A DNA stretch of 30,114 bases, the filler included, from an uncultured virus (IMG/VR IMGVR_UViG_2049941000_000908) (taxonomy: Duplodnaviria > Heunggongvirae > Uroviricota > Caudoviricetes). It is 2 parts of one record of this genome, joined end to end, with 100 filler letters (N's around TTAATTAATTAA, not from the genome) between each part and the next. Parts side by side here need not be neighbours in the genome. Positions count along the whole stretch, not along the records: positions 1 to 15,220 come from IMGVR_UViG_2049941000_000908; 1 more part is not named here. One strand, written 5' to 3'. Below, in pieces: positions 2,656 to 15,320 of this stretch. A program made the translations under genes and the position numbers. Under the pieces are notes generated by a model. The model was not told where the DNA came from and ran no database searches. It was given only the letters and a program-made list of their open reading frames with translations. Each line of letters begins with the position of its first letter. Positions within the stretch are counted from its first letter, which is position 1.

Positions 2656-2796
2656 TAAGATGCGAAAATCGAAGGTCAGGACCGGGCAACCGGCTCTGGC
2701 CTTTTCTATTGGAGGCGAGCAATGCCGTACAGGAAGGTCGGGTACGCCGAGCAGATCTGGTACATGCTCCGCTGGAAGTTGAAGGAGGTGTTCCCG

Positions 2797-3109
2797 ATGC
2801 CGAGGTTCCCGGACCACCCTTGCAGGCATCCCGGCTGTCCCAAGCTGGTGCCCAAGGGAAAGAAATACTGTGACGAACACGTCGCACTGCACCCGGAGGA
2901 AGTCCGGTCCGCTGCCGCCCGTGGTTACAACGCACGCTGGCGACGGCTCTCGAAGCTCTTTCTTTNNNNNNNNNNTCGTGGATCACATCCGTCCGCACCG
3001 TGGTGACCCGGAGCTCTTCTGGGACCCGGACAACTGGCAGGCGCTCTGCAAACATCATCATGATGTGAAGACGCGCAACGAAGATCAGTACCCTGTATAT
3101 CACTACTGA
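2797..3109 (+). CDS. HNH endonuclease (terminase-associated); spans a 10-N gap; alternative in-frame start at 2722
   Basis: PCRHPGCPKLV...YCDEH, ARGYNARWRR and VDHIRPHRGD..LFWDPDNWQALCKHHHDVKT. AAGGAGGTG RBS before ATG 2797. Confidence 0.9.
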
Positions 3110-3120
3110 TTTCCGACCGG

Positions 3121-3239: not shown

Positions 3240-3827
3240 GTGGCTAAAGACGGTACAAACAGAGGCGGCAGACGCGTCCGTGCAGGCGATAAACCGGATG
3301 CTCTTGCCGATAAAATCGCTCGTGGCAAAGCCGCGCAGGTCATGGACCTTCCGATCACCGAGCTCGATGGTACGGATGACCTTGGACCGGTCGCGGATCT
3401 GTCCGGAGCGGATATGCCGCACCCCAGCGACTACCTGTCCGCCAAGCAGCGTGACGGTGAACCGCTCGGCGCGGACATCATATTCAATGAAACGATCCGC
3501 TGGCTGAAGGAACGCGGCTGCGACCGGCTGGGCAATCCCCGNNNNNNNNNNCCCCGGCTGGTGGAAAGCTACTCCGAGGCCTTTGCCCGGTATATCCAGT
3601 GTTCAGAGGCGGTCAGCAGCTATGGCCTCCTCGGCAAGCACCCCACTACGAAGGCACCCATCGCCAGTCCCTTCGTACAAATGATGCTCAGTTTCCAGAA
3701 ACAGGCCAACCTGCTCTGGTACGAGATATTTGACATCGTGAAGCAGAACTGCACCACGGCCTACGAGGGCTCCCCGCAGGATGACGCGATGGAAAAACTG
3801 CTCAGATCAAGGAGTAAAAAGCGATGA
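3240..3827 (+). CDS. terS: Terminase small subunit (P27 family-like)
   Basis: GTG start. MAKDGTNRGGRRVRAGDKP N-terminus and GLLGKHPTTKAPIASPFVQM. Position after HNH. Contains a 10-N gap. Confidence 0.8.
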   Translation: MAKDGTNRGGRRVRAGDKPDALADKIARGKAAQVMDLPITELDGTDDLGPVADLSGADMPHPSDYLSAKQRDGEPLGADIIFNETIRWLKERGCDRLGNPXXXXPRLVESYSEAFARYIQCSEAVSSYGLLGKHPTTKAPIASPFVQMMLSFQKQANLLWYEIFDIVKQNCTTAYEGSPQDDAMEKLLRSRSKKR

Positions 3828-4606
3828 TAGAAAAAGTCAATCCGAGCCATCCGGACAAGGTGGCAGACCGCATCGCCGGTGCCATCGTGGACCTCGCATA
3901 TCGGACGGAGCATGATCCGAAGATCGCTGTGGAAGTCCTGATCGGCCACGGCAGATGCCATGTGATTATTGAGACCACGGCTGTGCTCGACGAAGACGCG
4001 ATCACGGATGCCATCAACAGGATCGCAGGTGACGTCACGCCGGACATCCAGATCGTCCCGCAGGATACGCACCTCTCTGAGAACCAGGCGGAGGGCCTGC
4101 GCTGCGGAGACAACGGTATCTTCAAGGGAATGCCGCTGACGCCGGAACAGAAACAGCTCTCAGCCATTGCCCGCAGAATTTATGAGAAATACACATCTGA
4201 CGGGAAGTACATTCTGGACGGCATCCGCCTGATCCTCTGCCAGAGCAACGCTCCCACTAAGGAACTGGCCAAGGACTATCCCGGCGCGGAGATCAACCCG
4301 CTCGGCGACTGGACCGGTGGCACGAATGTAGATACCGGCGCTACCAACCGGAAGCTCGGCAGTGACATGGCCGACTCCGTGACCGGTGGCGGCCTGCACG
4401 GCAAGGACCTGTCCAAGGCCGATGTATCCGTCAACATCCACGCCTTCCTGAAAGCCCAGCGTACCGGCGAGCCCGTGGAGCTCTGCTGCGCCATCGGCGA
4501 CGATACCGTGGACGGTCTTCCATTTCCGGATATCGTGGAGGAAGCGCGGAACTACATTCTCTCTATCGGCGGCTTCGAGAAGTTTGCCGAATGGGGCCTG
4601 TATTGA
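3824..4606 (+). CDS. metK: Compact S-adenosylmethionine synthetase (methionine adenosyltransferase)-like protein, 260 aa
   Basis: EKVNPSHPDKVADRIAGAIVD (cf. ESV..GHPDK..D), GDNGIFKG (cf. GAGDQG), DTGATNRKL (cf. DTGLTGRKI) and GGGLHGKDLSKADVS (cf. GGGAFSGKDPTKVDRS). ATGA overlap with terS. Confidence 0.88.
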   Translation: MIEKVNPSHPDKVADRIAGAIVDLAYRTEHDPKIAVEVLIGHGRCHVIIETTAVLDEDAITDAINRIAGDVTPDIQIVPQDTHLSENQAEGLRCGDNGIFKGMPLTPEQKQLSAIARRIYEKYTSDGKYILDGIRLILCQSNAPTKELAKDYPGAEINPLGDWTGGTNVDTGATNRKLGSDMADSVTGGGLHGKDLSKADVSVNIHAFLKAQRTGEPVELCCAIGDDTVDGLPFPDIVEEARNYILSIGGFEKFAEWGLY

Positions 4607-4616
4607 GGTGACCGCT

Positions 4617-5873
4617 ATGGCAAAGACGACAACCGAGATGAAGCTGGTCTCCATCGACAAGCTCATCCCTTATGTGAATAACGCACGAACCCACTCGCCG
4701 GAGCAGATCAACAAGCTCCGGTCTTCTTTACGGGAATTTGGCTTCGTCAACCCCGTAATCATCGACCAGAACTACAACGTGGTCGCTGGTCATGGGCGGC
4801 TGATGGCTGCGCGTGAGGAAGGCTTCACCGAAGTGCCCTGCGTGCTGGTGGACTACCTGACCGACGCCCAGCGCAAAGCCTACATCCTCGCGGACAACCG
4901 CTATGCCGAGGATGCGGGCTGGGACGAGGAAATGCTGCGCGTCGAGATTGAAGCCCTGCAGGAGCAGGCGTTTGACCTGTCCCTGACCGGCTTTGATGCA
5001 GACGAGTTGGCTGACCTGTTCGCGGATGACGAGGAAGAAACCAAGGACGACGACTTCGACCTCACCGCCGCACTGGAGAAGGCATCCTTCGTGGAACCCG
5101 GCGACCTCTGGACCGTGGGCAAGCACCGCCTGCTCTGTGGTGACGCCACCAAGGCTGAGGATGTAGAACGGCTCATGGACGGCAAACGCGCCAACCTGAT
5201 CGTGACGGACCCGCCCTACGGCGTTTCCTTCAAGAGTTCCAGCGGCCTTGCCATCCAGAACGATTCCATGAAGGGCGACGAGTTCTACCAGTTCCTTCTG
5301 GCAGCGTTTCAGGCAATGGCCGATGTTCTGGAAAAAGGCGGTGCCGCTTATGTGTTCCACGCGGACACTGAAGGGCTCAACTTCCGAAAGGCCTTCATTG
5401 ATGCCGGATTCCATCTGGCCGGTGTCTGCATCTGGGTGAAGAACAGCCTCGTGCTGGGCCGCTCAGATTATCAGTGGCAGCATGAGCCGGTGCTCTACGG
5501 ATTCCTACAGAACGGAAAGCATCCGTGGTACGCCGACCGGAAACAGACCACGATCTGGAACTACGACAAGCCCAAGCGCAACGAGAACCACCCGACCAGC
5601 AAGCCGCTGGACCTGCTGGCTTATCCGATCACCAATTCTTCGCAGGTCAACAGCGTCGTGATCGACACGTTCGGCGGCAGCGGTTCCACCATGATGGCCT
5701 GCGAACAGACCGGTCGCATTTGCTACATGATGGAGCTTGATCCGAAGTACGCCTCCGTTATCCTCCGGCGCTACGTTGAGGACTTCGGCGGTGCCGATCA
5801 GGTATATGTGGAACGCGACGGTAAGAAGCTCAGGTACGCCGATCTGGTGAAGGAAGTCGAGACCAGATCGTAA
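4617..5873 (+). CDS. ParB-like N-domain plus N6A/N4C DNA methyltransferase (beta-class motif order)
   Basis: LIPYVNNARTH...FGFVNPVIID...AGHGRL (ParB/Srx). VTDPPY catalytic motif precedes HPTSKP and the DTFGGSGST SAM-binding motif. GAGGTG RBS before ATG 4617. Confidence 0.93.
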   Translation: MAKTTTEMKLVSIDKLIPYVNNARTHSPEQINKLRSSLREFGFVNPVIIDQNYNVVAGHGRLMAAREEGFTEVPCVLVDYLTDAQRKAYILADNRYAEDAGWDEEMLRVEIEALQEQAFDLSLTGFDADELADLFADDEEETKDDDFDLTAALEKASFVEPGDLWTVGKHRLLCGDATKAEDVERLMDGKRANLIVTDPPYGVSFKSSSGLAIQNDSMKGDEFYQFLLAAFQAMADVLEKGGAAYVFHADTEGLNFRKAFIDAGFHLAGVCIWVKNSLVLGRSDYQWQHEPVLYGFLQNGKHPWYADRKQTTIWNYDKPKRNENHPTSKPLDLLAYPITNSSQVNSVVIDTFGGSGSTMMACEQTGRICYMMELDPKYASVILRRYVEDFGGADQVYVERDGKKLRYADLVKEVETRS

Positions 5874-5875
5874 GA

Positions 5876-6050
5876 TGCACAACGTCTCCGACCGGTGTTT
5901 GTGTAATAGGTAGAATGTCCCGGAAGGCCTGAAAATATGCGGTTTTTTCGAGATATATAACTTGCTATTTCAGGCCTTTAGAGTGATTAATACACTACCC
6001 GGAGGGAACAGGCCCACGGGAAACCAAACACTATAACGGAGGTACATACC
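5876..6050 (+). promoter_or_regulatory. Cassette leader 1: TGCACAA-N16-TTGTGTA dyad, promoter-like box and AACGGAGG RBS
   Basis: Dyad at 5876-5905; TATAACTTGCTATTTCAGGCCTTTAGAGTGATTAATACACTACC at 5956-5999. Homologous to the leaders at 7270 and 8230. Confidence 0.75.
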
Positions 6051-6833
6051 ATGATGAACATCAGACTTGCAACCGAGAACAGAAAAGCCGCCGCGCTGAG
6101 GCTGGCGGAGATCACCGGCGAGACTTCCCGCTACACCAAGGTTCCCAGATGCGCCTACCAGGTCGGCCCCTTCTTCTTCGAGAAGGACGGCACGGTCACG
6201 GTACCGGAGGACGCGGATTTCACGCCGCTGCGCACGCTGGCCGATGAAGGCCTGCTGGAGCCCTTCGAGGCAGAAGCCGAGCCGCAGTCGCAGGAAGATA
6301 CCACGGCGGCCACGGAGCCCGACGACGCGGACAGCGCCACCGAGGACGCGGATGCCCTGACGATCTCCCTGCCGATGGACGGCTTCAACCCGGATTCCCT
6401 TGACCGGCTCATCAAGCTGGTCGACAGCAAGGCCACCCTGATCAAGAAGGCGCTGGGTGCCACACGCCTGACGATCCGCAGGGATGGCGACCGGGTTTCC
6501 TTCCCTTGGTGGGACACGATGCCGGAAGCCGACGAGGTACAGACCTACATGAGCTTCATCACCGCCCTCTGCAAGATGGCGAAAGAAGCCCAGCGGGTCA
6601 CCGCCAAGGAAACTGAGGTTGAAAGCGAAAAGTACGCCTTCCGGTGCTTCCTCCTCCGACTGGGCTTCATCGGCAGCGACAGCAAGGCCCAGCGCAAAAT
6701 CCTGATGCGCAGGCTTTCCGGCACCGCCGCCTTCCCGAACAAGGAAAAGGCCGATGCCTTCAGCGCCGCACAGAAGGCCAAGCGGGATGCCGCCAAAGCC
6801 GCCGAGACCGAGGAGGTGGCAGCATGCGAATGA
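6051..6833 (+). CDS. Conserved phage protein commonly annotated 'virulence-related protein'; function unknown
   Basis: GGAGG RBS. C-terminal signature EKYAFRCFLLRLGFIG...RKILMRRLSG.AAF; acidic linker. Confidence 0.8.
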   Translation: MMNIRLATENRKAAALRLAEITGETSRYTKVPRCAYQVGPFFFEKDGTVTVPEDADFTPLRTLADEGLLEPFEAEAEPQSQEDTTAATEPDDADSATEDADALTISLPMDGFNPDSLDRLIKLVDSKATLIKKALGATRLTIRRDGDRVSFPWWDTMPEADEVQTYMSFITALCKMAKEAQRVTAKETEVESEKYAFRCFLLRLGFIGSDSKAQRKILMRRLSGTAAFPNKEKADAFSAAQKAKRDAAKAAETEEVAACE

Positions 6834-7225
6834 TCCGACCTGAGCAGCTCAAGCACCTGCGGGAAACCTACCCGACCGGGACCCGCGTGGAACTGGTCCA
6901 GATGGACGACGCGCAGGCACCGCCCATCGGCACAAAAGGCACCGTCACCGGTGTGGACGACACAGGCAGCCTCCTGGTCGACTGGGACAACGGCTCCGGC
7001 CTGAACGTGATCTGGGGAGTCGACGTGGTCCGGAAGGTTCCGAGCATGACGGATACGATCCGCGAGCAGATCCTCGCGATCCGGGACACCGGCCTCACAA
7101 ACATGTTCGACGTCCCGATGGTCCAGCGGCTGGCCAACGACCGAGGCTACTACGAACTGGTCTGCTACCTCGAAGAACACCGCAGGGAGTACGCGCACTT
7201 CATCATGACCGGCGAGGCCGAATAA
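6824..7225 (+). CDS. DUF4314-like plus DUF5049-like fusion protein (133 aa)
   Basis: GGAGG RBS before ATG 6824. YPTGTRVELVQMDD..APPIGTKGTV..VDD.GSLLVDWDNGSGLNV (DUF4314-like), then in frame MTDTIREQILAIRDTGLTNMFD...EYAHFIMTG (DUF5049-like). Confidence 0.8.
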   Translation: MRMIRPEQLKHLRETYPTGTRVELVQMDDAQAPPIGTKGTVTGVDDTGSLLVDWDNGSGLNVIWGVDVVRKVPSMTDTIREQILAIRDTGLTNMFDVPMVQRLANDRGYYELVCYLEEHRREYAHFIMTGEAE

Positions 7226-7234
7226 CGGCTTCCA

Positions 7235-7265
7235 GCCAGAAGAGCCAGAAGGCTCTTTTGGTCGT
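7235..7265 (+). terminator. Cassette-end hairpin GCCAGAAGAGCC-AGAA-GGCTCTTTTGGT followed by CGT
   Basis: Stem visible directly after the cassette 1 stop; short T run. Confidence 0.55.
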
Positions 7266-7269
7266 ATAG

Positions 7270-7403
7270 TACACAATTTCAGGCGCTGATATTTGTCGAT
7301 TATATGTGTGGAAATCTCGCAGATATAACTTGCTATATTCCCCGTTTAGAGTGATATATACAGTACCCCAAGGGGAAAACACGAAAAACGGAGGAAAACC
7401 ACC
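7270..7403 (+). promoter_or_regulatory. Cassette leader 2: TACACAA-N16-TTGTCGA dyad, promoter-like box and RBS
   Basis: 7317-7367 matches 8277-8327 at 48/51 nt without gaps; the dyad also sits at the same 960-bp offset. Confidence 0.8.
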
Positions 7404-7679
7404 ATGACGATCAACGAAGCAATGAGAACCTACCGCCTGCCGAACCCCAGCACCCCGGAAGACCTCGAATGCCGCTGGAGCAAGATCCTGAACTTCGGAG
7501 ACAAGGTCATCCTCGCCGGGTACTACTACAACGGCAAAAACAAGCCCTGCTACTTCGGAGCCACCTACGAATTCCTGACCGACGACACCACCTGCGAGGG
7601 CACGGTTGGCCTGCGGGCCGCCAGCGAGGTCGAATTCGAGGACGACGGACACGCCATTCTCTGGGCGATGCAGCAGTAA
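7404..7679 (+). CDS. Hypothetical protein (91 aa)
   Basis: AACGGAGG RBS, strongly biased codon usage, directly after leader 2. Confidence 0.8.
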   Translation: MTINEAMRTYRLPNPSTPEDLECRWSKILNFGDKVILAGYYYNGKNKPCYFGATYEFLTDDTTCEGTVGLRAASEVEFEDDGHAILWAMQQ

Positions 7680-7692
7680 GGAGGTCAACGCC

Positions 7693-8169
7693 ATGATGAA
7701 CGCAAACAACGCCTACTTCGAGAACCTGAAGCGTATCGGCCACGAATGGGAGGCCGCCCGCGTCGAGCGGAAGAACCGCAAGCAGCAGATCATCGACACC
7801 CTCGGCTGGGACAGCGACGAGCTGAAGGCCTGGTACGAGGAAGACGCAGCCGCCAAGTTCCCCTTTGAATCCGGCGTCAGCAAGGCCTACCGCGCATGGG
7901 CGCAGAGCCTTTCCCGGAAAGAGGACGAGCTGGAGATGGACGATTTCCTCTGGGACAAGGAGGTCGCGGACTTCATCGAAGCCCTCCGCAGCGCCGGGAT
8001 CGAGACCTTCGTGTACACCAACCAGAGCACGGCGGTGATGGAAAACCTCCACGCCTTTGCCGCACAGGGCTGCACGATGATGGGCCTTTGCACCATCACC
8101 CGGCAGGAAACCCGCTGGGGCGACGAAGAGCCGACCGAGGTCATGGGCATCCGCTTCCGCATAAGCTGA
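7693..8169 (+). CDS. Hypothetical acidic protein (158 aa; DUF7698-like by recall)
   Basis: TAAGGAGGT stop/RBS coupling. DFLWDKEVADFIEALRSAGIETFVYTNQSTAVMENLHAF..GC.M.GL signature. Confidence 0.8.
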   Translation: MMNANNAYFENLKRIGHEWEAARVERKNRKQQIIDTLGWDSDELKAWYEEDAAAKFPFESGVSKAYRAWAQSLSRKEDELEMDDFLWDKEVADFIEALRSAGIETFVYTNQSTAVMENLHAFAAQGCTMMGLCTITRQETRWGDEEPTEVMGIRFRIS

Positions 8170-8190
8170 AAGCCGCTGGAAAACCCAGCC

Positions 8191-8221
8191 GCCACCGGAG
8201 CCGAAAGGCTCTGTTGGTCGT
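8191..8221 (+). terminator. Cassette-end hairpin GCCACCGGAGCC-GAAA-GGCTCTGTTGGT followed by CGT
   Basis: Same GCCA..GAGCC-N4-GGCTC..TGGTCGT layout as 7235-7265; GNRA loop; weak U tract. Confidence 0.5.
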
Positions 8222-8229
8222 TCATAATG

Positions 8230-8370
8230 TGCACAAGTCCGGCCTCAAAGATTTGTGTAGATTATGGCCGATTATATCGCAGATATAACTTGCTATATCC
8301 TCCGTTTAGAGTGATATATACACTACCGAAAGGGAAACCGGACGGAAAACAAAAACGGAGGTACGCCACC
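8230..8370 (+). promoter_or_regulatory. Cassette leader 3: TGCACAA-N16-TTGTGTA dyad, promoter-like box and RBS
   Basis: Dyad at 8230-8259; AGATATAACTTGCTATATCCTCCGTTTAGAGTGATATATACACTACC at 8281-8327. Confidence 0.8.
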
Positions 8371-8694
8371 ATGACGAACGCTTACGAACTGAGAAAACAC
8401 TTCTTCCTCGAAGACTACAACACCGCGATCCTGCGGGAGGACTTCGAAGCCTTCTTCACCAAAACGAAAGAAAAGGTCACCTTCACCTTCGGCGGCTGGG
8501 ACGGCAAGAGCTACGACGGCGAGAGCCGCACGGCCAGCGTTTACCGCACCAGCATCCCCGGCTTCGAAAGCGTCAGGCTGATCAAGGTCGGCAAGGGCCT
8601 GCACTACATCGAAGAGGATCACGAGGTCCTCGAAAAGGCCACCGGCGAGTACCACAAGCGGGCCAGCTGGCTGGTCGACGTCAAGAAGGCTTAA
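8371..8694 (+). CDS. Hypothetical protein (107 aa)
   Basis: AACGGAGG RBS before ATG 8371; reads MTNAYELRKHFFLEDYN... Confidence 0.8.
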   Translation: MTNAYELRKHFFLEDYNTAILREDFEAFFTKTKEKVTFTFGGWDGKSYDGESRTASVYRTSIPGFESVRLIKVGKGLHYIEEDHEVLEKATGEYHKRASWLVDVKKA

Positions 8695-8707
8695 GGAGGT
8701 GCCGACC

Positions 8708-9046
8708 ATGAAGTACGCAAGAAGAGACGCCACCATTTACACCGATCTGGAACCCATCGACCGAAACGATCCGGACAGCGCAAACAGCGCCATCGAGTAC
8801 GGCCTGCCGACTGGCTTTTCCGGCAAAGCACATGCCTGCTGGGAATACTTCTCCGGAGCCGCCTACCTCTTCGAATACAAAGGCCAGCTGGTGATCACCG
8901 ACGAGAGCCTTGAACTGACCGAGTACGGCGACGGCAGCCACGAAGCACCCTTTGGCGCACCGAGAGGCACCTTCGACACTTGGGAGGAAGTTGAGGAATG
9001 GCTCGAAGCGGTCTACGATGACCTGATGGAGGAAGGCATCCTGTAA
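8708..9046 (+). CDS. Hypothetical strongly acidic protein (112 aa)
   Basis: TAAGGAGGT stop/RBS coupling; about 25 D/E versus 7 K/R by manual count. Confidence 0.8.
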   Translation: MKYARRDATIYTDLEPIDRNDPDSANSAIEYGLPTGFSGKAHACWEYFSGAAYLFEYKGQLVITDESLELTEYGDGSHEAPFGAPRGTFDTWEEVEEWLEAVYDDLMEEGIL

Positions 9047-9071
9047 ACGAAACCACCTGATTTGAATATCA

Positions 9072-9132
9072 GCGGGAACGGCCCATCCGGGCTGTATCTC
9101 GTTATCCGAAGATCCGCAAGGGTCTATTTTTT
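9072..9132 (+). terminator. Cassette-end hairpin ending in TCGT (9072-9102) plus intrinsic terminator AGATCC-GCAA-GGGTCT-ATTTTTT (9110-9132)
   Basis: Two consecutive stem-loops between the last cassette gene and terL; the second has a U tract. Confidence 0.6.
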
Positions 9133-9153
9133 ATGCCTTGAGGAGGTGAGAAT

Positions 9154-10448
9154 TTGCGAAAACTGAAGAAGTACAAGCCGACCGCCTTCAAGGCCAAGGA
9201 CTCCTACTACGACGAGGACGCTGCGGATTTCGCAGTCGCCTTCATCGAAAACCTCTGCCANNNNNNNNNNNNNNNNNNNNNNNNNNNNNNNNNNNNNNNN
9301 NNNNNNNNNNNNNNNNNNNNNNNNNNNNNNNNNNNNNNNNNNNNNNNNNNNNNNNNNNNNNNNNNNNNNNNNNNNNNNNNNNNNNNNNNNNNNNNNNNNN
9401 NNNNNNNNNNNNNNNNNNNNNNNNNNNNNNNNNNNNNNNNNNNNNNNNGATACCGAAGAAAATGGGCAAGTCCGAACTGGCCGCTGCGGTAGCGCTGCTG
9501 CTCACCTGCGGCGACGGTGAGGAACGCGCCGAGGTCTATGGCTGCGCGGCTGACCGTCAGCAGGCTGCCATCGTGTTCGACGTGGCCGCCGACATGGTAC
9601 GAATGTGTCCAGCGCTGAACCGGCGCGTGAAAATACTGGCTTCCCAGAAGCGGATCATCTATCTGCCGACGAACAGCTTCTACCAGGTGCTGTCGGCAGA
9701 GGCCTATTCCAAGCACGGCTTCAACATCCACGGCGTCGTATTCGACGAGCTGCATACCCAGCCCAACCGGAAGCTCTTTGATGTCATGACCAAGGGCTCC
9801 GGCGATGCCCGCATGCAGCCGCTTTACTTCCTGATCACAACGGCGGGAACGGACACCCACTCCATCTGCTACGAGACCCACCAGAAAGCCAAGGACATCC
9901 TCGAAGGCCGGAAGATCGATCCGACCTTCTATCCGGTGATCTACGGCGCGGATGAATCCGAGGACTGGACGGACCCGAAGGTCTGGAAGAAAGCCAACCC
10001 GTCTCTTGGCATCACGGTCGGGATCGATAAGGTCCGGGCAGCCTGTGAATCGGCGCGGCAGAATCCCGGCGAAGAAAACGCCTTCCGGCAGCTCCGATTG
10101 AACCAGTGGGTCAAGCAGGCTGTGCGCTGGATGCCGATGGAAAAATGGGATGCCTGCGCCTTCCCGGTAAGCGAGGAAGATCTGGAAGGCCGGGTCTGCT
10201 ACGGCGGCCTCGACCTCTCGTCCACTTCGGATATCACTGCCTTCGTGCTGGTGTTCCCGCCTGTGGATGAGGATGACCGGTACACTATTCTCCCGTATTT
10301 CTGGGTGCCGGAGGATACGCTGGACCTGCGCGTCCGGCGCGATCACGTGCCCTATGAGGTCTGGGAGCGACAGGGCTTCCTGATGACCACCGAGGGCAAC
10401 GTCATTCACTACGGCTACATCGAGAAGTTCATCGAGCGTCTCGGAGAA
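9154..10448 (+). CDS. terL: Terminase large subunit (gapped; 3' end in gap)
   Basis: TTG start with GAGGAGGTGA RBS. PKKMGKSE Walker A, VVFDELH Walker B, LITTAG and the GGLDLSSTSD nuclease motif. Confidence 0.95.
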
Positions 10449-10878
10449 NNNNNNNNNNNNNNNNNNNNNNNNNNNNNNNNNNNNNNNNNNNNNNNNNNNN
10501 NNNNNNNNNNNNNNNNNNNNNNNNNNNNNNNNNNNNNNNNNNNNNNNNNNNNNNNNNNNNNNNNNNNNNNNNNNNNNNNNNNNNNNNNNNNNNNNNNNNN
10601 NNNNNNNNNNNNNNNNNNNNNNNNNNNNNNNNNNNNNNNNNNNNNNNNNNNNNNNNNNNNNNNNNNNNNNNNNNNNNNNNNNNNNNNNNNNNNNNNNNNN
10701 NNNNNNNNNNNNNNNNNNNNNNNNNNNNNNNNNNNNNNNNNNNNNNNNNNNNNNNNNNNNNNNNNNNNNNNNNNNNNNNNNNNNNNNNNNNNNNNNNNNN
10801 NNNNNNNNNNNNNNNNNNNNNNNNNNNNNNNNNNNNNNNNNNNNNNNNNNNNNNNNNNNNNNNNNNNNNNNNNNNNAC

Positions 10879-12195
10879 CTGTACACCTACAAGGATGACG
10901 GCGGCAAGGAAAAAGCCATCGGGCATCCGCTGTACCTGCTGTTGCACGACGAGCCCAACCCGGAGATGAGCTCCTTCGTCTTCCGGGAAACGCTGATGAC
11001 ACACCTGCTCCTCTGGGGCAATGCCTACGCGCAGATCATCCGGAATGGCAAAGGCGAGGTCGTGGCGCTGTATCCGCTCATGCCAAATCGCATGACGGTG
11101 GACCGGGATTCTTCAGGGCAGCTTTTTTACAGCTACCAGATGAACAACACNNNNNNNNNNNNNNNNNNNNNNNNNNNNNNNNNNNNNNNNNNNNNNNNNN
11201 NNNNNNNNNNNNNNNNNNNNNNNNNNNNNNNNNNNNNNNNNNNNNNNNNNNNNNNNNNNNNNNNNNNNNNNNNNNNNNNNNNNNNNNNNNNNNNNNNNNN
11301 NNNNNNNNNNNNNNNNNNNNNNNNNNNNNNNNNNNNNNNNNNNNNNNNNNNNNNNNNNNNNNNNNNNNNNNNNNNNNNNNNNNNNNNNNNNNNNNNNNNN
11401 NNNNNNNNNNNNNNNNNNNNNNNNNNNNNNNNNNNNNNNNNNNNNNNNNNNNNNNNNNNNNNNNNNNNNNNNNNNNNNNNNNNNNNNNNNNNNNNNNNNN
11501 NNNNNNNNNNNNNNNNNNNNNNNNNNNNNNNNNNNNNNNNNNNNNNNNNNNNNNNNNNNNNNNNNNNNNNNNNNNNNNNNNNNNNNNNNNNNNNNNNNNN
11601 NNNNNNNNNNNNNNNNNNNNNNNNNNNNNNNNNNNNNNNNNNNNNNNNNNNNNNNNNNNNNNNNNNNNNNNNNNNNNNNNNNNNNNNNNNNNNNNNNNNN
11701 NNNNNNNNNNNNNNNNNNNNNNNNNNNNNNNNNNNNNNNNNNNNNNNNNNNNNNNNNNNNNNNNNNNNNNNNNNNNNNNNNNNNNNNNNNNNNNNNNNNN
11801 NNNNNNNNNNNNNNNNNNNNNNNNNNNNNNNNNNNNNNNNNNNNNNNNNNNNNNNNNNNNNNNNNNNNNNNNNNNNNNNNNNNNNNNNNNNNNNNNNNNN
11901 NNNNNNNNNNNNNNNNNNNNNNNNNNNNNNNNNNNNNNNNNNNNNNNNNNNNNNNNNNNNNNNNNNNNNNNNNNNNNNNNNNNNNNNNNNNNNNNNNNNN
12001 NNNNNNNNNNNNNNNNNNNNNNNNNNNNNNNNNNNNNNNNNNNNNNNNNNNNNNNNNNNNNNNNNNNNNNNNNNNNNAGGAGCTTTTGCAGATATCGATT
12101 CGGGAAAGGAGGATACGGAATCCGATGAACCCACAGAAGAAATTTTGGAAGTGGAGAAATCAGGCAGACGGAGAACCGGAAGCACGAGTCCTTGA
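10879..12195 (+). CDS. HK97-family portal protein (mostly gap)
   Basis: HPLYLLLHDEPNPEMSSFVFRETLMTHLLLWGNAYAQIIRNGKGEVVALYPL.PNRM.VDRD. C-terminal tail reappears after the gap. Confidence 0.9.
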   Translation: MYTYKDDGGKEKAIGHPLYLLLHDEPNPEMSSFVFRETLMTHLLLWGNAYAQIIRNGKGEVVALYPLMPNRMTVDRDSSGQLFYSYQMNNXXXXXXXXXXXXXXXXXXXXXXXXXXXXXXXXXXXXXXXXXXXXXXXXXXXXXXXXXXXXXXXXXXXXXXXXXXXXXXXXXXXXXXXXXXXXXXXXXXXXXXXXXXXXXXXXXXXXXXXXXXXXXXXXXXXXXXXXXXXXXXXXXXXXXXXXXXXXXXXXXXXXXXXXXXXXXXXXXXXXXXXXXXXXXXXXXXXXXXXXXXXXXXXXXXXXXXXXXXXXXXXXXXXXXXXXXXXXXXXXXXXXXXXXXXXXXXXXXXXXXXXXXXXXXXXXXXXXXXXXXXXXXXXXXXXXXXXXXXXXXXXXXXXXXXGAFADIDSGKEDTESDEPTEEILEVEKSGRRRTGSTSP

Positions 12196-14721: not shown

Positions 14722-14914
14722 ATGTCTAACCGAAAAGTACAGATCGACGGTCTGGCGGATGCCGTGATGGAAGGCCTGATGGAATACAACGATCTGGCTG
14801 CCGACTCGGTGAAAAAAGCTGTAAAGAAAGCCGGGACCACCGTCCGAGACGAGATCAGGAGTACCGCTCCGGAGAGAACCGGACGCTACGCCAAGTCGTG
14901 GACCAGTAAGACGA
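14722..14914 (+). CDS. HK97 gp10-family tail-completion protein, partial (variant copy at 14991-15220)
   Basis: VKKAVKKAGTTVRDEIRSTAPERTGRYAKSW. Two near-identical copies lie across a 10-N gap. Confidence 0.8.
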
Positions 14915-15220
14915 NNNNNNNNNNCGATGAGATGGGCTTTAAGCGCAACAGCCGTAAGCTCCACACCGAGCTCACTGAGAGGTAACGGATATGTCAAACC
15001 GAAAAGTCCAGATCGACGGTCTGGCGGATGCCGTAATGGAAGGACTGATGGAATACAACGATCTGGCTGCCGACACCGTGAAAAAAGCAGTAAAGAAAGC
15101 CGGAACCACTGTCCGAGATGAGATCAGGAGTACCGCTCCGGAAAGAACCGGACGCTACGCCAAGTCGTGGACCAGTAAGACGACGGAGGAAACGGCTACT
15201 TCCATGCAGGTTACGGTGTA

Positions 15221-15320
15221 NNNNNNNNNNNNNNNNNNNNNNNNNNNNNNNNNNNNNNNNNNNNTTAATTAATTAANNNNNNNNNNNNNNNNNNNNNNNN
15301 NNNNNNNNNNNNNNNNNNNN
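15221..15320. other. Artificial scaffold-joining linker N44-TTAATTAATTAA-N44
   Basis: Exactly 100 nt; the 12-mer at 15265-15276 has stops in all six frames. Confidence 0.9.

Follow-up and report, generated by a model that had tools for sequence, protein, structure and literature searches.

How are accessory genes that lie inside a long, co-directional string of phage genes expressed on a schedule of their own, and how are they gained and exchanged? These questions are raised by a locus in an uncultured Caudoviricetes virus (IMGVR_UViG_2049941000_000908), which we analyzed as a stretch of 30,114 nucleotides (nt), referred to throughout as the window. Between a DNA methyltransferase gene and the large terminase gene, terL, three units (5874-7265, 7266-8221 and 8222-9102) repeat one architecture: a dyad, a 31-nt box, a GGAGG ribosome site, two coupled open reading frames (ORFs), and an end stem-loop. 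A sequence-only reading of this locus had described these parts, and all of them are present where it placed them. It had set the array between terS and terL: terL is indeed the right neighbor, but on its left the array adjoins the methyltransferase gene, and terS lies 2 kb further upstream. Three points go beyond that reading. From its distribution, the leader that carries the box appears to be a phage element of Bacillota-wide occurrence rather than a repeat local to this array; a variable 8-mer within it has the properties of an anti-Shine-Dalgarno (anti-SD) sequence; and the box also stands before large serine recombinase genes.

Structure and distribution of the leader

The box reads CTTGCTAT-N8-TTTAGAGTGAT[A/T][T/A]AT, with eight free nucleotides (N8) where seven had been counted before. 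Its core, AACTTGCTAT-N8-TTTAGAGTGAT, has exactly three copies in the window (at 5959, 7327 and 8287, all on the + strand); no further core site was found there at three or fewer mismatches, and 100 dinucleotide shuffles yielded no match. Leaders 2 and 3 are identical at 48 of 51 positions (-12 to +38 of the box), reproducing an earlier count, and leader 1 matches them at 37/51 and 39/51 positions, respectively. An AACGGAGG ribosome-binding site (RBS) follows 75-90 nt past the box start, 5' of the ATGs at 6051, 7404 and 8371, and the second gene of each pair carries a GGAGG of its own. The leaders have a GC content of 44-48% and the cassette genes one of 58-63%; the two genes of the first cassette overlap by 10 nt (coordinates of all features are given in Table 1). 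Because one homologous leader is common to the units, the co-regulation proposed from the start is plausible. Exactly two ORFs per unit, by comparison, is a rule that holds in the window but not in relatives.

The two ends of the units are less widely conserved. The dyad core, TRCACAA-N16-TTGT (5876-5902, 7270-7296 and 8230-8256), occurs with exactly N16 in 18 of 126 leaders, and its two halves vary independently, so that a protein site is likelier than an RNA stem. Stem-loops 1 and 2 are 11-bp stems with one compensatory change between them and, as had been reported, end in TCGT. A terminator scan called neither of them an intrinsic terminator, and both lack a free U-tail because the TTTTGG/GTTGG stretch sits inside the stem and TCGT follows. 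The end stem-loop with TTGGTCGT is limited to a close, high-GC subfamily (nine contexts, including the window and near-identical copies).

The leader itself is far more widespread. The exact pattern CTTGCTAT-N8-TTTAGAGTG was found in at least 137 stretches of IMG/VR viral contigs, and a slightly longer exact pattern in at least 139 stretches of one-genome-per-species contigs. Among the matches listed, the named records cover Lachnospiraceae, Oscillospiraceae, Negativicutes, Bacillaceae, Lactobacillales, Acholeplasmataceae and others, and a few are labeled Actinomycetota or Bacteroidota. The box also occurs in GenBank Heliusvirales phages, in Streptococcus Javan prophages, and in a Terrisporobacter phage. 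Plasmids contained it in two records only, both weak matches, and given this rarity a reading of the box as part of a conjugative leading region was dropped.

Within 126 non-redundant copies, positions A25, T26, A29 and T30 are nearly invariant although they lie outside the searched pattern, the 8-mer is free, and the box is followed by an ACC(R)AAA motif and then by an A-rich tract. A Shine-Dalgarno (SD) sequence and an open start codon follow in 195 of 205 non-redundant leaders. The distance from box start to start codon was 40-109 nt for all 85 ORFs listed in a first set, and 50-89 nt for 81 of them. We classified 82 first ORFs (the 85 complete ones minus three copies of the window's own genes): 16 encode Amidoligase_2, six DUF7678, four DUF6329, three DUF7698, and two each Nmad4, DUF4314 and a large serine recombinase, while 47 belong to no Pfam family. 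Many of these 47 fall into the family of cassette 1 gene 1, which follows 35 of 195 leaders by tblastn.

In the nearest genome (G001), the box lies directly 5' of two large serine recombinase genes (loci L007 and L008). The surrounding three-gene unit (L007 780-1878; L008 110-1141) sits behind a lysin gene and encodes a sigma-70 region-4-like protein, a 58-amino-acid (aa) protein, and the recombinase, with the leader box inside a gap of ~50 nt right before the recombinase start. The sigma-region-4-like protein carries zinc-ribbon motifs and has homologues in 17 loci.

The spacer 8-mer and the origin of the leader transcript

The free 8-mer is complementary to the untranslated region (UTR) downstream of it, chiefly to the SD and the bases around it; examples are TATCCTCCGT with ACGGAGGA, TTTTTGCCTT with AGGCAAAA, and TATGTACCTT with AGGTACATA. 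The longest Watson-Crick run between N8 and UTR averaged 5.0 nt, compared to 4.31 +/- 0.12 in 200 permutations of the 8-mers among loci, and runs of at least 7 nt were seen in 18 of 126 leaders (permuted mean 4.8, maximum 11). The same permutation control, applied to these 126 leaders, gave no N8-UTR signal in the same sense. Duplex energy across 195 leaders was -11.94 kcal/mol versus -10.11 +/- 0.15 kcal/mol after permutation. On one side the pairing centered on the 3' half of N8 together with TTT, on the other on the bases from -3 to +8 around the SD. Restricting the comparison to 29 leaders with mutually distinct N8 left the signal in place (-12.0 versus -10.0 +/- 0.40, with 0/300 permutations as low), which indicates many independent compensatory states. 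A fixed-register scan of column pairs for mutual information (MI) returned no covarying partner column for N8, as the distance to the partner varies.

The window's own leaders offer concrete cases. When the leader 3 RNA includes the box, its predicted fold contains a perfect 9-bp helix, CCUCCGUUU/AAACGGAGG (z -2.45); in the fold predicted for leader 2 RNA beginning at the box, UUCCCCGUUU pairs with AAACGG-AGGAA and covers the SD. Such helices of 9-10 bp form in leaders 2 and 3 solely when the RNA contains the box, and the SD is free if the RNA starts after it. Judged by these sequence comparisons, the variable 8-mer is an anti-SD sequence. In these predicted folds, RNA derived from upstream would have its ribosome site sequestered, a point on which the two leading explanations of the leader agree; they differ in where the translated RNA begins. 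A post-box hairpin, ACC-GAAA-GG, was considered as a general 5' stabilizer and set aside: it occurs in 54 leaders versus 55.6 in shuffles, and is a subfamily trait.

We incline, by a little more than even, to the view that the leader is an autonomous promoter with an anti-SD in its spacer, that read-through RNA is locked whereas leader-started RNA is not, and that leaders serve as recombination joints as well. In this account the region would be an accessory-gene hot spot of a Heliusvirales-type temperate phage, holding three autonomous expression cassettes. The promoter would consist of an A-rich upstream stretch, the -35 hexamer TTGCTA, the 8-nt free spacer, and TTTAGAGTGAT[A/T][T/A]AT in place of a -10 region, with a 5' UTR, short and rich in A, and then a strong GGAGG downstream. 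The spacer 8-mer would have evolved to be complementary to the SD region of its own cassette. A late co-directional transcript crossing the array toward terL would carry both arms, fold back, and hide the ribosome site, whereas RNA begun at the leader would be without the 5' arm and would be translated. Cargo would then be expressed solely on the leader's own schedule. Since serine-integrase genes are preceded by the same box, this schedule would more likely be early or constitutive than late. The sequence-only reading had also favored an early locus, pointing to a putative cos end a few kb away; in lambda, packaging begins with the terminase-proximal end, and this end enters the cell last.

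Several properties of the leader argue for a promoter. Across 43 divergent copies, changes in the first hexamer follow the pattern of -35 hexamers (TTGCTA, TTGATA, TTGCAA, TTGACT), and an A-rich flank with AAAT at -6 to -3 gives a weak signal upstream of the box. Ten leaders have a changed or substituted invariant block together with a canonical hexamer, which stands 17 nt after TTGNNN (GAATAT in seven, TAATAT in two) or, in one, 18 nt after it (TATATA); these leaders keep the anti-SD, the UTR and the SD (for example, L147:2640, L016 and L066). The genomic setting also gives the lock a biological sense, since array and integrase gene lie inside a co-directional string of roughly 45 kb that a late transcript would cross. 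In the complete genome of a related phage, NatCom_27610, a single such string of this length runs from replication genes through the array to lysis genes. Terminator-like sites within 100 nt upstream were found for only 14 of 195 leaders; together with the co-directional string and an ArpU-like regulator ahead of the HNH and terS genes, this scarcity suggests that insulation would be needed. The regulator, a 138-aa protein encoded at 2191-2604, matches PHROG 36 'transcriptional regulator' (9e-25) and, weakly and below the cut-off, ArpU TIGR01637 (21 bits); it is probably a late activator. Orientations of upstream neighbors taken from raw ORFs are unreliable in high-GC DNA, where a spurious antisense ORF can appear although annotation has a co-directional neighbor.

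A number of observations weigh against this account. Most leaders sit in co-directional strings with no upstream terminator, a setting that would suit an element acting at the RNA level equally well. A consensus scan of 5700-9260 found no sigma-70-type sites. The common box has no hexamer 16-18 nt from TTGCTA with A at -11 and T at -7, reading GATATA+T at 17 nt; TAGAGT does have both bases but lies 11 nt from TTGCTA, and a sigma-A pair (TTGACA-like and TATAAT-like, 16-18 nt apart) is present in only about ten variant leaders. TTTAGAGTGAT is near-invariant across hosts of 30-60% GC, which exceeds what a sigma-A promoter needs. The start site within the leader is a deduced position, and the RNA data are contigs, blind to 5' ends. 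With regard to the lock, complementarity is weak in leader 1 of the window (N8+UUU/SD of 6 bp, fold z -0.18), no complementary run exceeds 5 nt in 89 of 126 leaders, and the asymmetry between G.U and A.C mismatches that sense-strand RNA pairing would predict was not seen (51 versus 65; permuted, 45 versus 62).

Other assignments of the box were tried and rejected. TAGAGT as a -10 element with an ATGACT-like -35 was discarded because several variants that are otherwise intact carry another base at A19 yet keep GTGAT..AT. Comparison by eye with the consensus sequences of sigma-54, sigma-D, sigma-H, sigma-E/K, CIRCE/HrcA, LexA and the T4 MotA box gave no fit in register; the geometry of the MotA box (a TGCT-type box ~11-13 nt before TAnnnT) shows a resemblance only. 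An TTGAGAGT motif upstream of the HNH gene (~2630), considered as a shared late-activator site, is not conserved in NatCom_27610.

We rank second, and put forward only tentatively, an explanation in which the leader acts as RNA. Transcription would start upstream, at a promoter near the dyad or in the preceding genes, the whole box would be in the mRNA, and N8:SD pairing would form a translational lock. Opening it would take either endonuclease cleavage within the conserved single-stranded UUUAGAGUGAUAUAU loop or the binding of a protein or ligand to the conserved segments. The box would then be a riboregulator or processing site and not a promoter. Covariation of N8 and SD, which shows both arms to be functional on one RNA, is consistent with this possibility, as are the paucity of upstream terminators, a weak -10-like TATa.t at -16 to -11 upstream of the box, and the non-canonical -10 of the box itself. 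The invariance of the box over very different hosts would suit interaction with a conserved host machine, and in L007, L008 and loci of the L159 type, 3-8 nt separate the upstream gene's stop codon from the start of the box. The variants weigh against this explanation and for the promoter with an IS10-like fold-back lock: CTTGCTAT varies in a -35-like manner, and a canonical -10 at 17 nt can take the place of the conserved loop, a change that an RNA binding site would not be expected to tolerate. Moreover, Rfam returned no match in 5500-9260 even at E<=1, no covarying helix other than N8:SD was found (the MI scan gave none in fixed register), the post-box hairpin is not enriched, and the signals of a promoter upstream reach about 1 bit at most.

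A broader proposition, which we consider doubtful, is that the box is no ordinary promoter but constitutes a previously undescribed, phylum-wide phage regulatory element with a programmable anti-SD lock: either a class of promoters that depend on a factor, or a riboregulator or processing site that engages conserved Bacillota machinery. It would define a 'leader regulon' of accessory genes, whose members would include amidoligases, Nmad4, DUF7678 and others, in addition to integrases. If this were true, leader scans would offer a direct route to new phage counter-defense or DNA-modification genes.

Cassette exchange and cargo at the hot spot

Leaders recur at the same genomic position in other phages. 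At least 66 of 195 non-redundant leaders have a same-strand homologue of the ParB-methyltransferase no more than 2.5 kb upstream, and at least 49 of 195 have a TerL homologue within 4 kb downstream; both counts are lower bounds, as many loci have only 300-1500 nt of flank. By sequence, the methyltransferase gene appears to be the conserved left neighbor of the hot spot. In 37 distinct loci holding both genes the methyltransferase-terL gap ranges from 0.66 to 5.1 kb and contains no leader in one locus, one in 12, two in 20, three in three, and four in one. Content is thus not fixed among relatives. The first cassette usually comprises the family of cassette 1 gene 1, the commonest first cargo after the methyltransferase, plus DUF4314, and later cassettes differ between loci: NatCom_27610 has two cassettes, the second consisting of a 61-aa gene and then Nmad4, and L050 has a permuted order, with cassette 3 gene 1 ahead of the Nmad4 cassette.

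The breakpoints of these rearrangements coincide with leader edges. Ends of BLAST segments cluster at 7241-7270, 7318-7329, 7382-7413, 8178-8198, 8267-8288 and 8336-8380, and variant arrangements with joints at leaders appear in RNA-library contigs of four studies. One joint (7379/7382 to 7705; contigs of three studies) leads from leader 2 straight into DUF7698, with Nmad4 missing. Others connect leader 1 to cassette 3 gene 1 (5999 to 8371), leader 1 to cassette 2 (6010 to 7388), the end of cassette 2 back to leader 1 (8272 to 5961), and 7684 to 8708; past 8337, two different new continuations of RBS and gene were seen. These contigs stem from related phages in the samples; they show neither 5' ends nor transcription, and their depth cannot rank genes. 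These breakpoints support the earlier suggestion that leaders act as recombination points, the joints at which cassettes would be added, removed and reordered. Their near-identity between cassettes and between phages points to homologous recombination as the means.

Homology segments of several relatives also begin or end at 7046, the DUF4314/DUF5049 domain boundary within the gene at 6824-7225, and the NatCom_27610 version of this gene encodes DUF4314 only. Shuffling thus occurs at domain borders as well as at leaders.

Reordered cassettes and the placement of the box next to large serine recombinase genes would also be expected of an integron-like system, in which the box is the recombination site of a phage serine recombinase that captures and reorders cassettes. 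We consider this very improbable. Sites of serine recombinases are imperfect palindromes around a central dinucleotide, and the box is not. Junctions are scattered (+38, +49, +50, +53, +59, -17 and start codons), as where homology ends, rather than falling at one crossover point. Integron arrays have an integrase beside them, cassettes that lack promoters, and recombination sites of hairpin or palindromic form at the cassette borders; here no recombinase adjoins the array, and each cassette has its own leader. In the complete NatCom_27610 genome, leaders are found only at the hot spot and none at invertase or recombinase genes. The geometry from box to RBS is explained by gene expression.

The six cargo genes had been described as of no known function; four of them have a family match: the product of cassette 1 gene 1 to the middle part of PHROG 2443, and three others to DUF4314 plus DUF5049, Nmad4 and DUF7698. 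PADLOC and NCBIfam searches returned nothing for any of the six. Cassette 1 gene 1 has no Pfam match; its AlphaFold2 (AF2) model has a pLDDT of 88. VIA-align related the N-terminal domain weakly to the RNase H3 N-domain (Z 6.1, 64 residues, root-mean-square deviation 2.8) and residues 100-225, also weakly, to part of enzymes of the PafA/gamma-glutamylcysteine-ligase (gamma-GCS) type (Z 5.4-5.8), both under the Z level that separates true relatives from common arrangements. The best Foldseek match against the PDB was weak as well (E 0.011, KH-type pre-ribosome factors), and atlas clusters of this protein carry the automatic name 'virulence protein', a name without tested basis. Homologues of cassette 3 gene 1 follow leaders in other phages (3/195), and the atlas gave no usable match for it.

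The recurrence together of the methyltransferase, the MetK-like gene, amidoligases and Nmad4 suggests DNA- or nucleotide-directed functions, and the cargo may be accessory, possibly tied to DNA modification or counter-defense. This bears on whether the cassettes could instead be prophage-expressed morons, with leaders constitutive in the lysogen and cargo serving lysogenic conversion or superinfection exclusion, an explanation about timing and role that can coexist with the promoter mechanism. With its promoter-like leader, its genes and a closing stem-loop, set between conserved phage genes, each unit has a moron layout, and content varies between loci; contigs from gut and rumen RNA libraries cover the cassettes, although DNA carry-over is possible in those libraries. 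We nevertheless judge it unlikely. The cargo, at 58-63% GC, is not atypical of the window (56%), the box also stands before integrase genes, whose role is not lysogen maintenance, and the recurrent cargo (Amidoligase_2 and Nmad4, linked to ParB-methyltransferase and MetK-like genes) points toward DNA- or nucleotide-directed roles. A Pfam search found no surface or exclusion-type domains among the cargo.

Table 1. Coordinates of the three cassettes and flanking features in the window
Feature	Position	Strand	Basis or remark
ParB_N + N6_N4 DNA methyltransferase	4584..5873	+	Pfam N6_N4_Mtase 2.4e-25, ParB_N 6.1e-08; PHROG 498 2.7e-185
Dyad 1, TGCACAA-N16-TTGTGT	5876..5904	+	sequence
Leader box 1, CTTGCTAT + N8 TTCAGGCC + TTTAGAGTGATTAAT	5961..5991	+	
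GGAGG ribosome-binding site, cassette 1	6038..6042	+	sequence
Cassette 1 gene 1, 260 aa	6051..6833	+	PHROG 2443 'amidoligase enzyme', profile 159-428, 3.1e-47
Cassette 1 gene 2, 133 aa, DUF4314 + DUF5049	6824..7225	+	Pfam 5.1e-30, 3.3e-33
End stem-loop 1, CCAGAAGAGCC-AGAA-GGCTCTTTTGG + TCGT	7236..7265	+	stem 7236-7261
Dyad 2, TACACAA-N16-TTGTCG	7270..7298	+	sequence
Leader box 2, N8 = ATTCCCCG	7329..7359	+	
Cassette 2 gene 1, 91 aa, Nmad4	7404..7679	+	Pfam 1.9e-21
Cassette 2 gene 2, 158 aa, DUF7698	7693..8169	+	Pfam 3e-13
End stem-loop 2, CCACCGGAGCC-GAAA-GGCTCTGTTGG + TCGT	8192..8221	+	stem 8192-8217
Dyad 3, TGCACAA-N16-TTGTGT	8230..8258	+	sequence
Leader box 3, N8 = ATCCTCCG, includes anti-SD CCTCC	8289..8319	+	
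Cassette 3 gene 1, 107 aa, no family	8371..8694	+	Pfam, PHROG, PADLOC, NCBIfam searches
Cassette 3 gene 2, 112 aa, no family	8708..9046	+	Pfam, PHROG, PADLOC, NCBIfam searches
End stem-loop 3, CGGCCC-ATCC-GGGCTG + TATCTCGT	9079..9102	+	weaker than stem-loops 1 and 2
Terminator-like hairpin + T-run directly 5' of terL RBS	9110..9135	+	terminator scan; site 9110-9125
terL, right neighbor of hot spot, partly masked	9154..10898	+	Pfam TerL_ATPase, TerL_nuclease

The window derives from a temperate siphovirus of Bacillota type and contains many masked N runs. Its nearest GenBank records are 'Ca. Heliusvirales' phages, with identical synteny in Oscillospiraceae phage NatCom_27610, and the phage sequence is present in metagenome runs of 12 studies (labeled bovine gut, oral, gut and plain metagenome). 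All genes lie on the + strand. Ahead of the array come primase/helicase, the end of an SNF2-type gene, a small PHROG 7024 gene, the ArpU-like regulator (weak match), HNH (2722-3110), terS (3240-3827), the MetK-like gene (3824-4606, truncated) and the methyltransferase gene; after the array come terL, portal, a ClpP-type protease, an HK97-type capsid and tail genes. The hairpin just before terL is the sole + strand terminator-like site returned by the terminator scan, and late transcription would require read-through or antitermination to reach terL.

The MetK-like protein (260 aa) resembles S-adenosylmethionine (SAM) synthetase in the N-terminal domain only; residues 1-259 match positions 4-336 of the 346-position PHROG 1569 profile (1.5e-64), and this match over the whole protein indicates a conserved short phage form rather than a fragment. 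At 1640-1942, ~140 nt of the SNF2-type helicase gene end are present in two slightly differing versions on either side of a 10-N run (1792-1801), which looks like a scaffold join of two strain variants and not a biological duplication. Two adjoining ORFs at 14722-15272, both HK97-gp10-like and with N runs between and after them, represent either a tandem duplication or a join artifact.

Relation to known cassette systems

Phages of the Heliusvirales type are a widespread intestinal bacteriophage lineage (PMC11283538), and their accessory genes are nearly all of unknown function. The leader offers a 'guilt by leader' handle for cataloguing this pool, leader joints would provide a mechanism for cargo swapping in such phages, and a promoter-embedded anti-SD would be a concrete device for separating a gene's own expression from read-through in a long co-directional transcript. 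The paper that described the lineage (PMC11283538) makes no mention of promoter, cassette or amidoligase. Searches of the literature with sequence strings and cargo Pfam names returned unrelated papers only and no description of the motif; neither a near-invariant leader across Bacillota phages nor an anti-SD in its variable spacer was found in print.

Related arrangements exist elsewhere. Lambdoid morons, known from Hendrix and colleagues, are autonomous promoter-gene-terminator units, variably present between conserved phage genes, that have individual, unrelated promoters and often a deviant GC content. The cassettes resemble them in being inserted between conserved phage genes and in their variable presence, but differ in having one near-invariant leader common to hundreds of phages and cargo whose GC is not deviant. 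The host-takeover module of SPO1 consists of arrays of short operons with repeated strong promoter/RBS signals, and the start-associated sequences (SAS) of Cluster K mycobacteriophages are a conserved motif right before many start codons. Neither is related to the leader in sequence, and each is confined to one phage group, whereas the box extends across Bacillota.

The closest parallel in arrangement is with the promoter-early stem-loop (PeSL) elements, which Arbiol et al. reportedly presented in 2010 as mobile regulatory cassettes of T4-type phages. According to Comeau et al. 2014 (PMC4122927), short conserved promoter and stem-loop motifs flank variable ORFs of unknown function in plastic regions and are points of homologous exchange that insert, delete and replace genes. 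Likewise, variable ORFs in our locus are bordered by repeats of a conserved composite motif (three in the window, 0-4 in the 37 loci), and indels, replacements and reorderings break at that motif (joints 5999, 6010, 7379/7382, 8272 and 8337; the L050 order). The sequences are unrelated, and the carriers are Bacillota siphoviruses and prophages rather than Gram-negative myoviruses. PeSL holds a promoter; here one is predicted, from a -35-like hexamer and from a canonical -10 in variants, with no canonical site in the window. The stem-loop occurs only in a close subfamily and has no U-tail, and the conserved part is the 31-nt box with its non-canonical -10. The leader also has an anti-SD, a feature that is not known to have been described for PeSL elements.

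For the lock, the parallel is with IS10/Tn10, in which fold-back inhibition, as reportedly found by Davis, Simons and Kleckner in 1985, protects from external promoters. There, a stretch that precedes the element's own start can pair with the ribosome-binding region; read-through RNA is translationally silent, and native RNA is without the 5' arm. The leader, too, has a segment before the presumed native start that is complementary to its gene's own ribosome-binding region. Unlike in IS10, the 5' arm here would sit in the promoter spacer itself, and instead of a single transposase the device fronts many different phage accessory genes. In IS200 (PMC4513863), the SD is sequestered by an anti-SD inside the native transcript. 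That geometry is the one expected if the leader acted as RNA throughout. By analogy, the arrangement would work like PeSL cassettes and its lock like the fold-back of IS10, while by sequence the leader is a member of neither.

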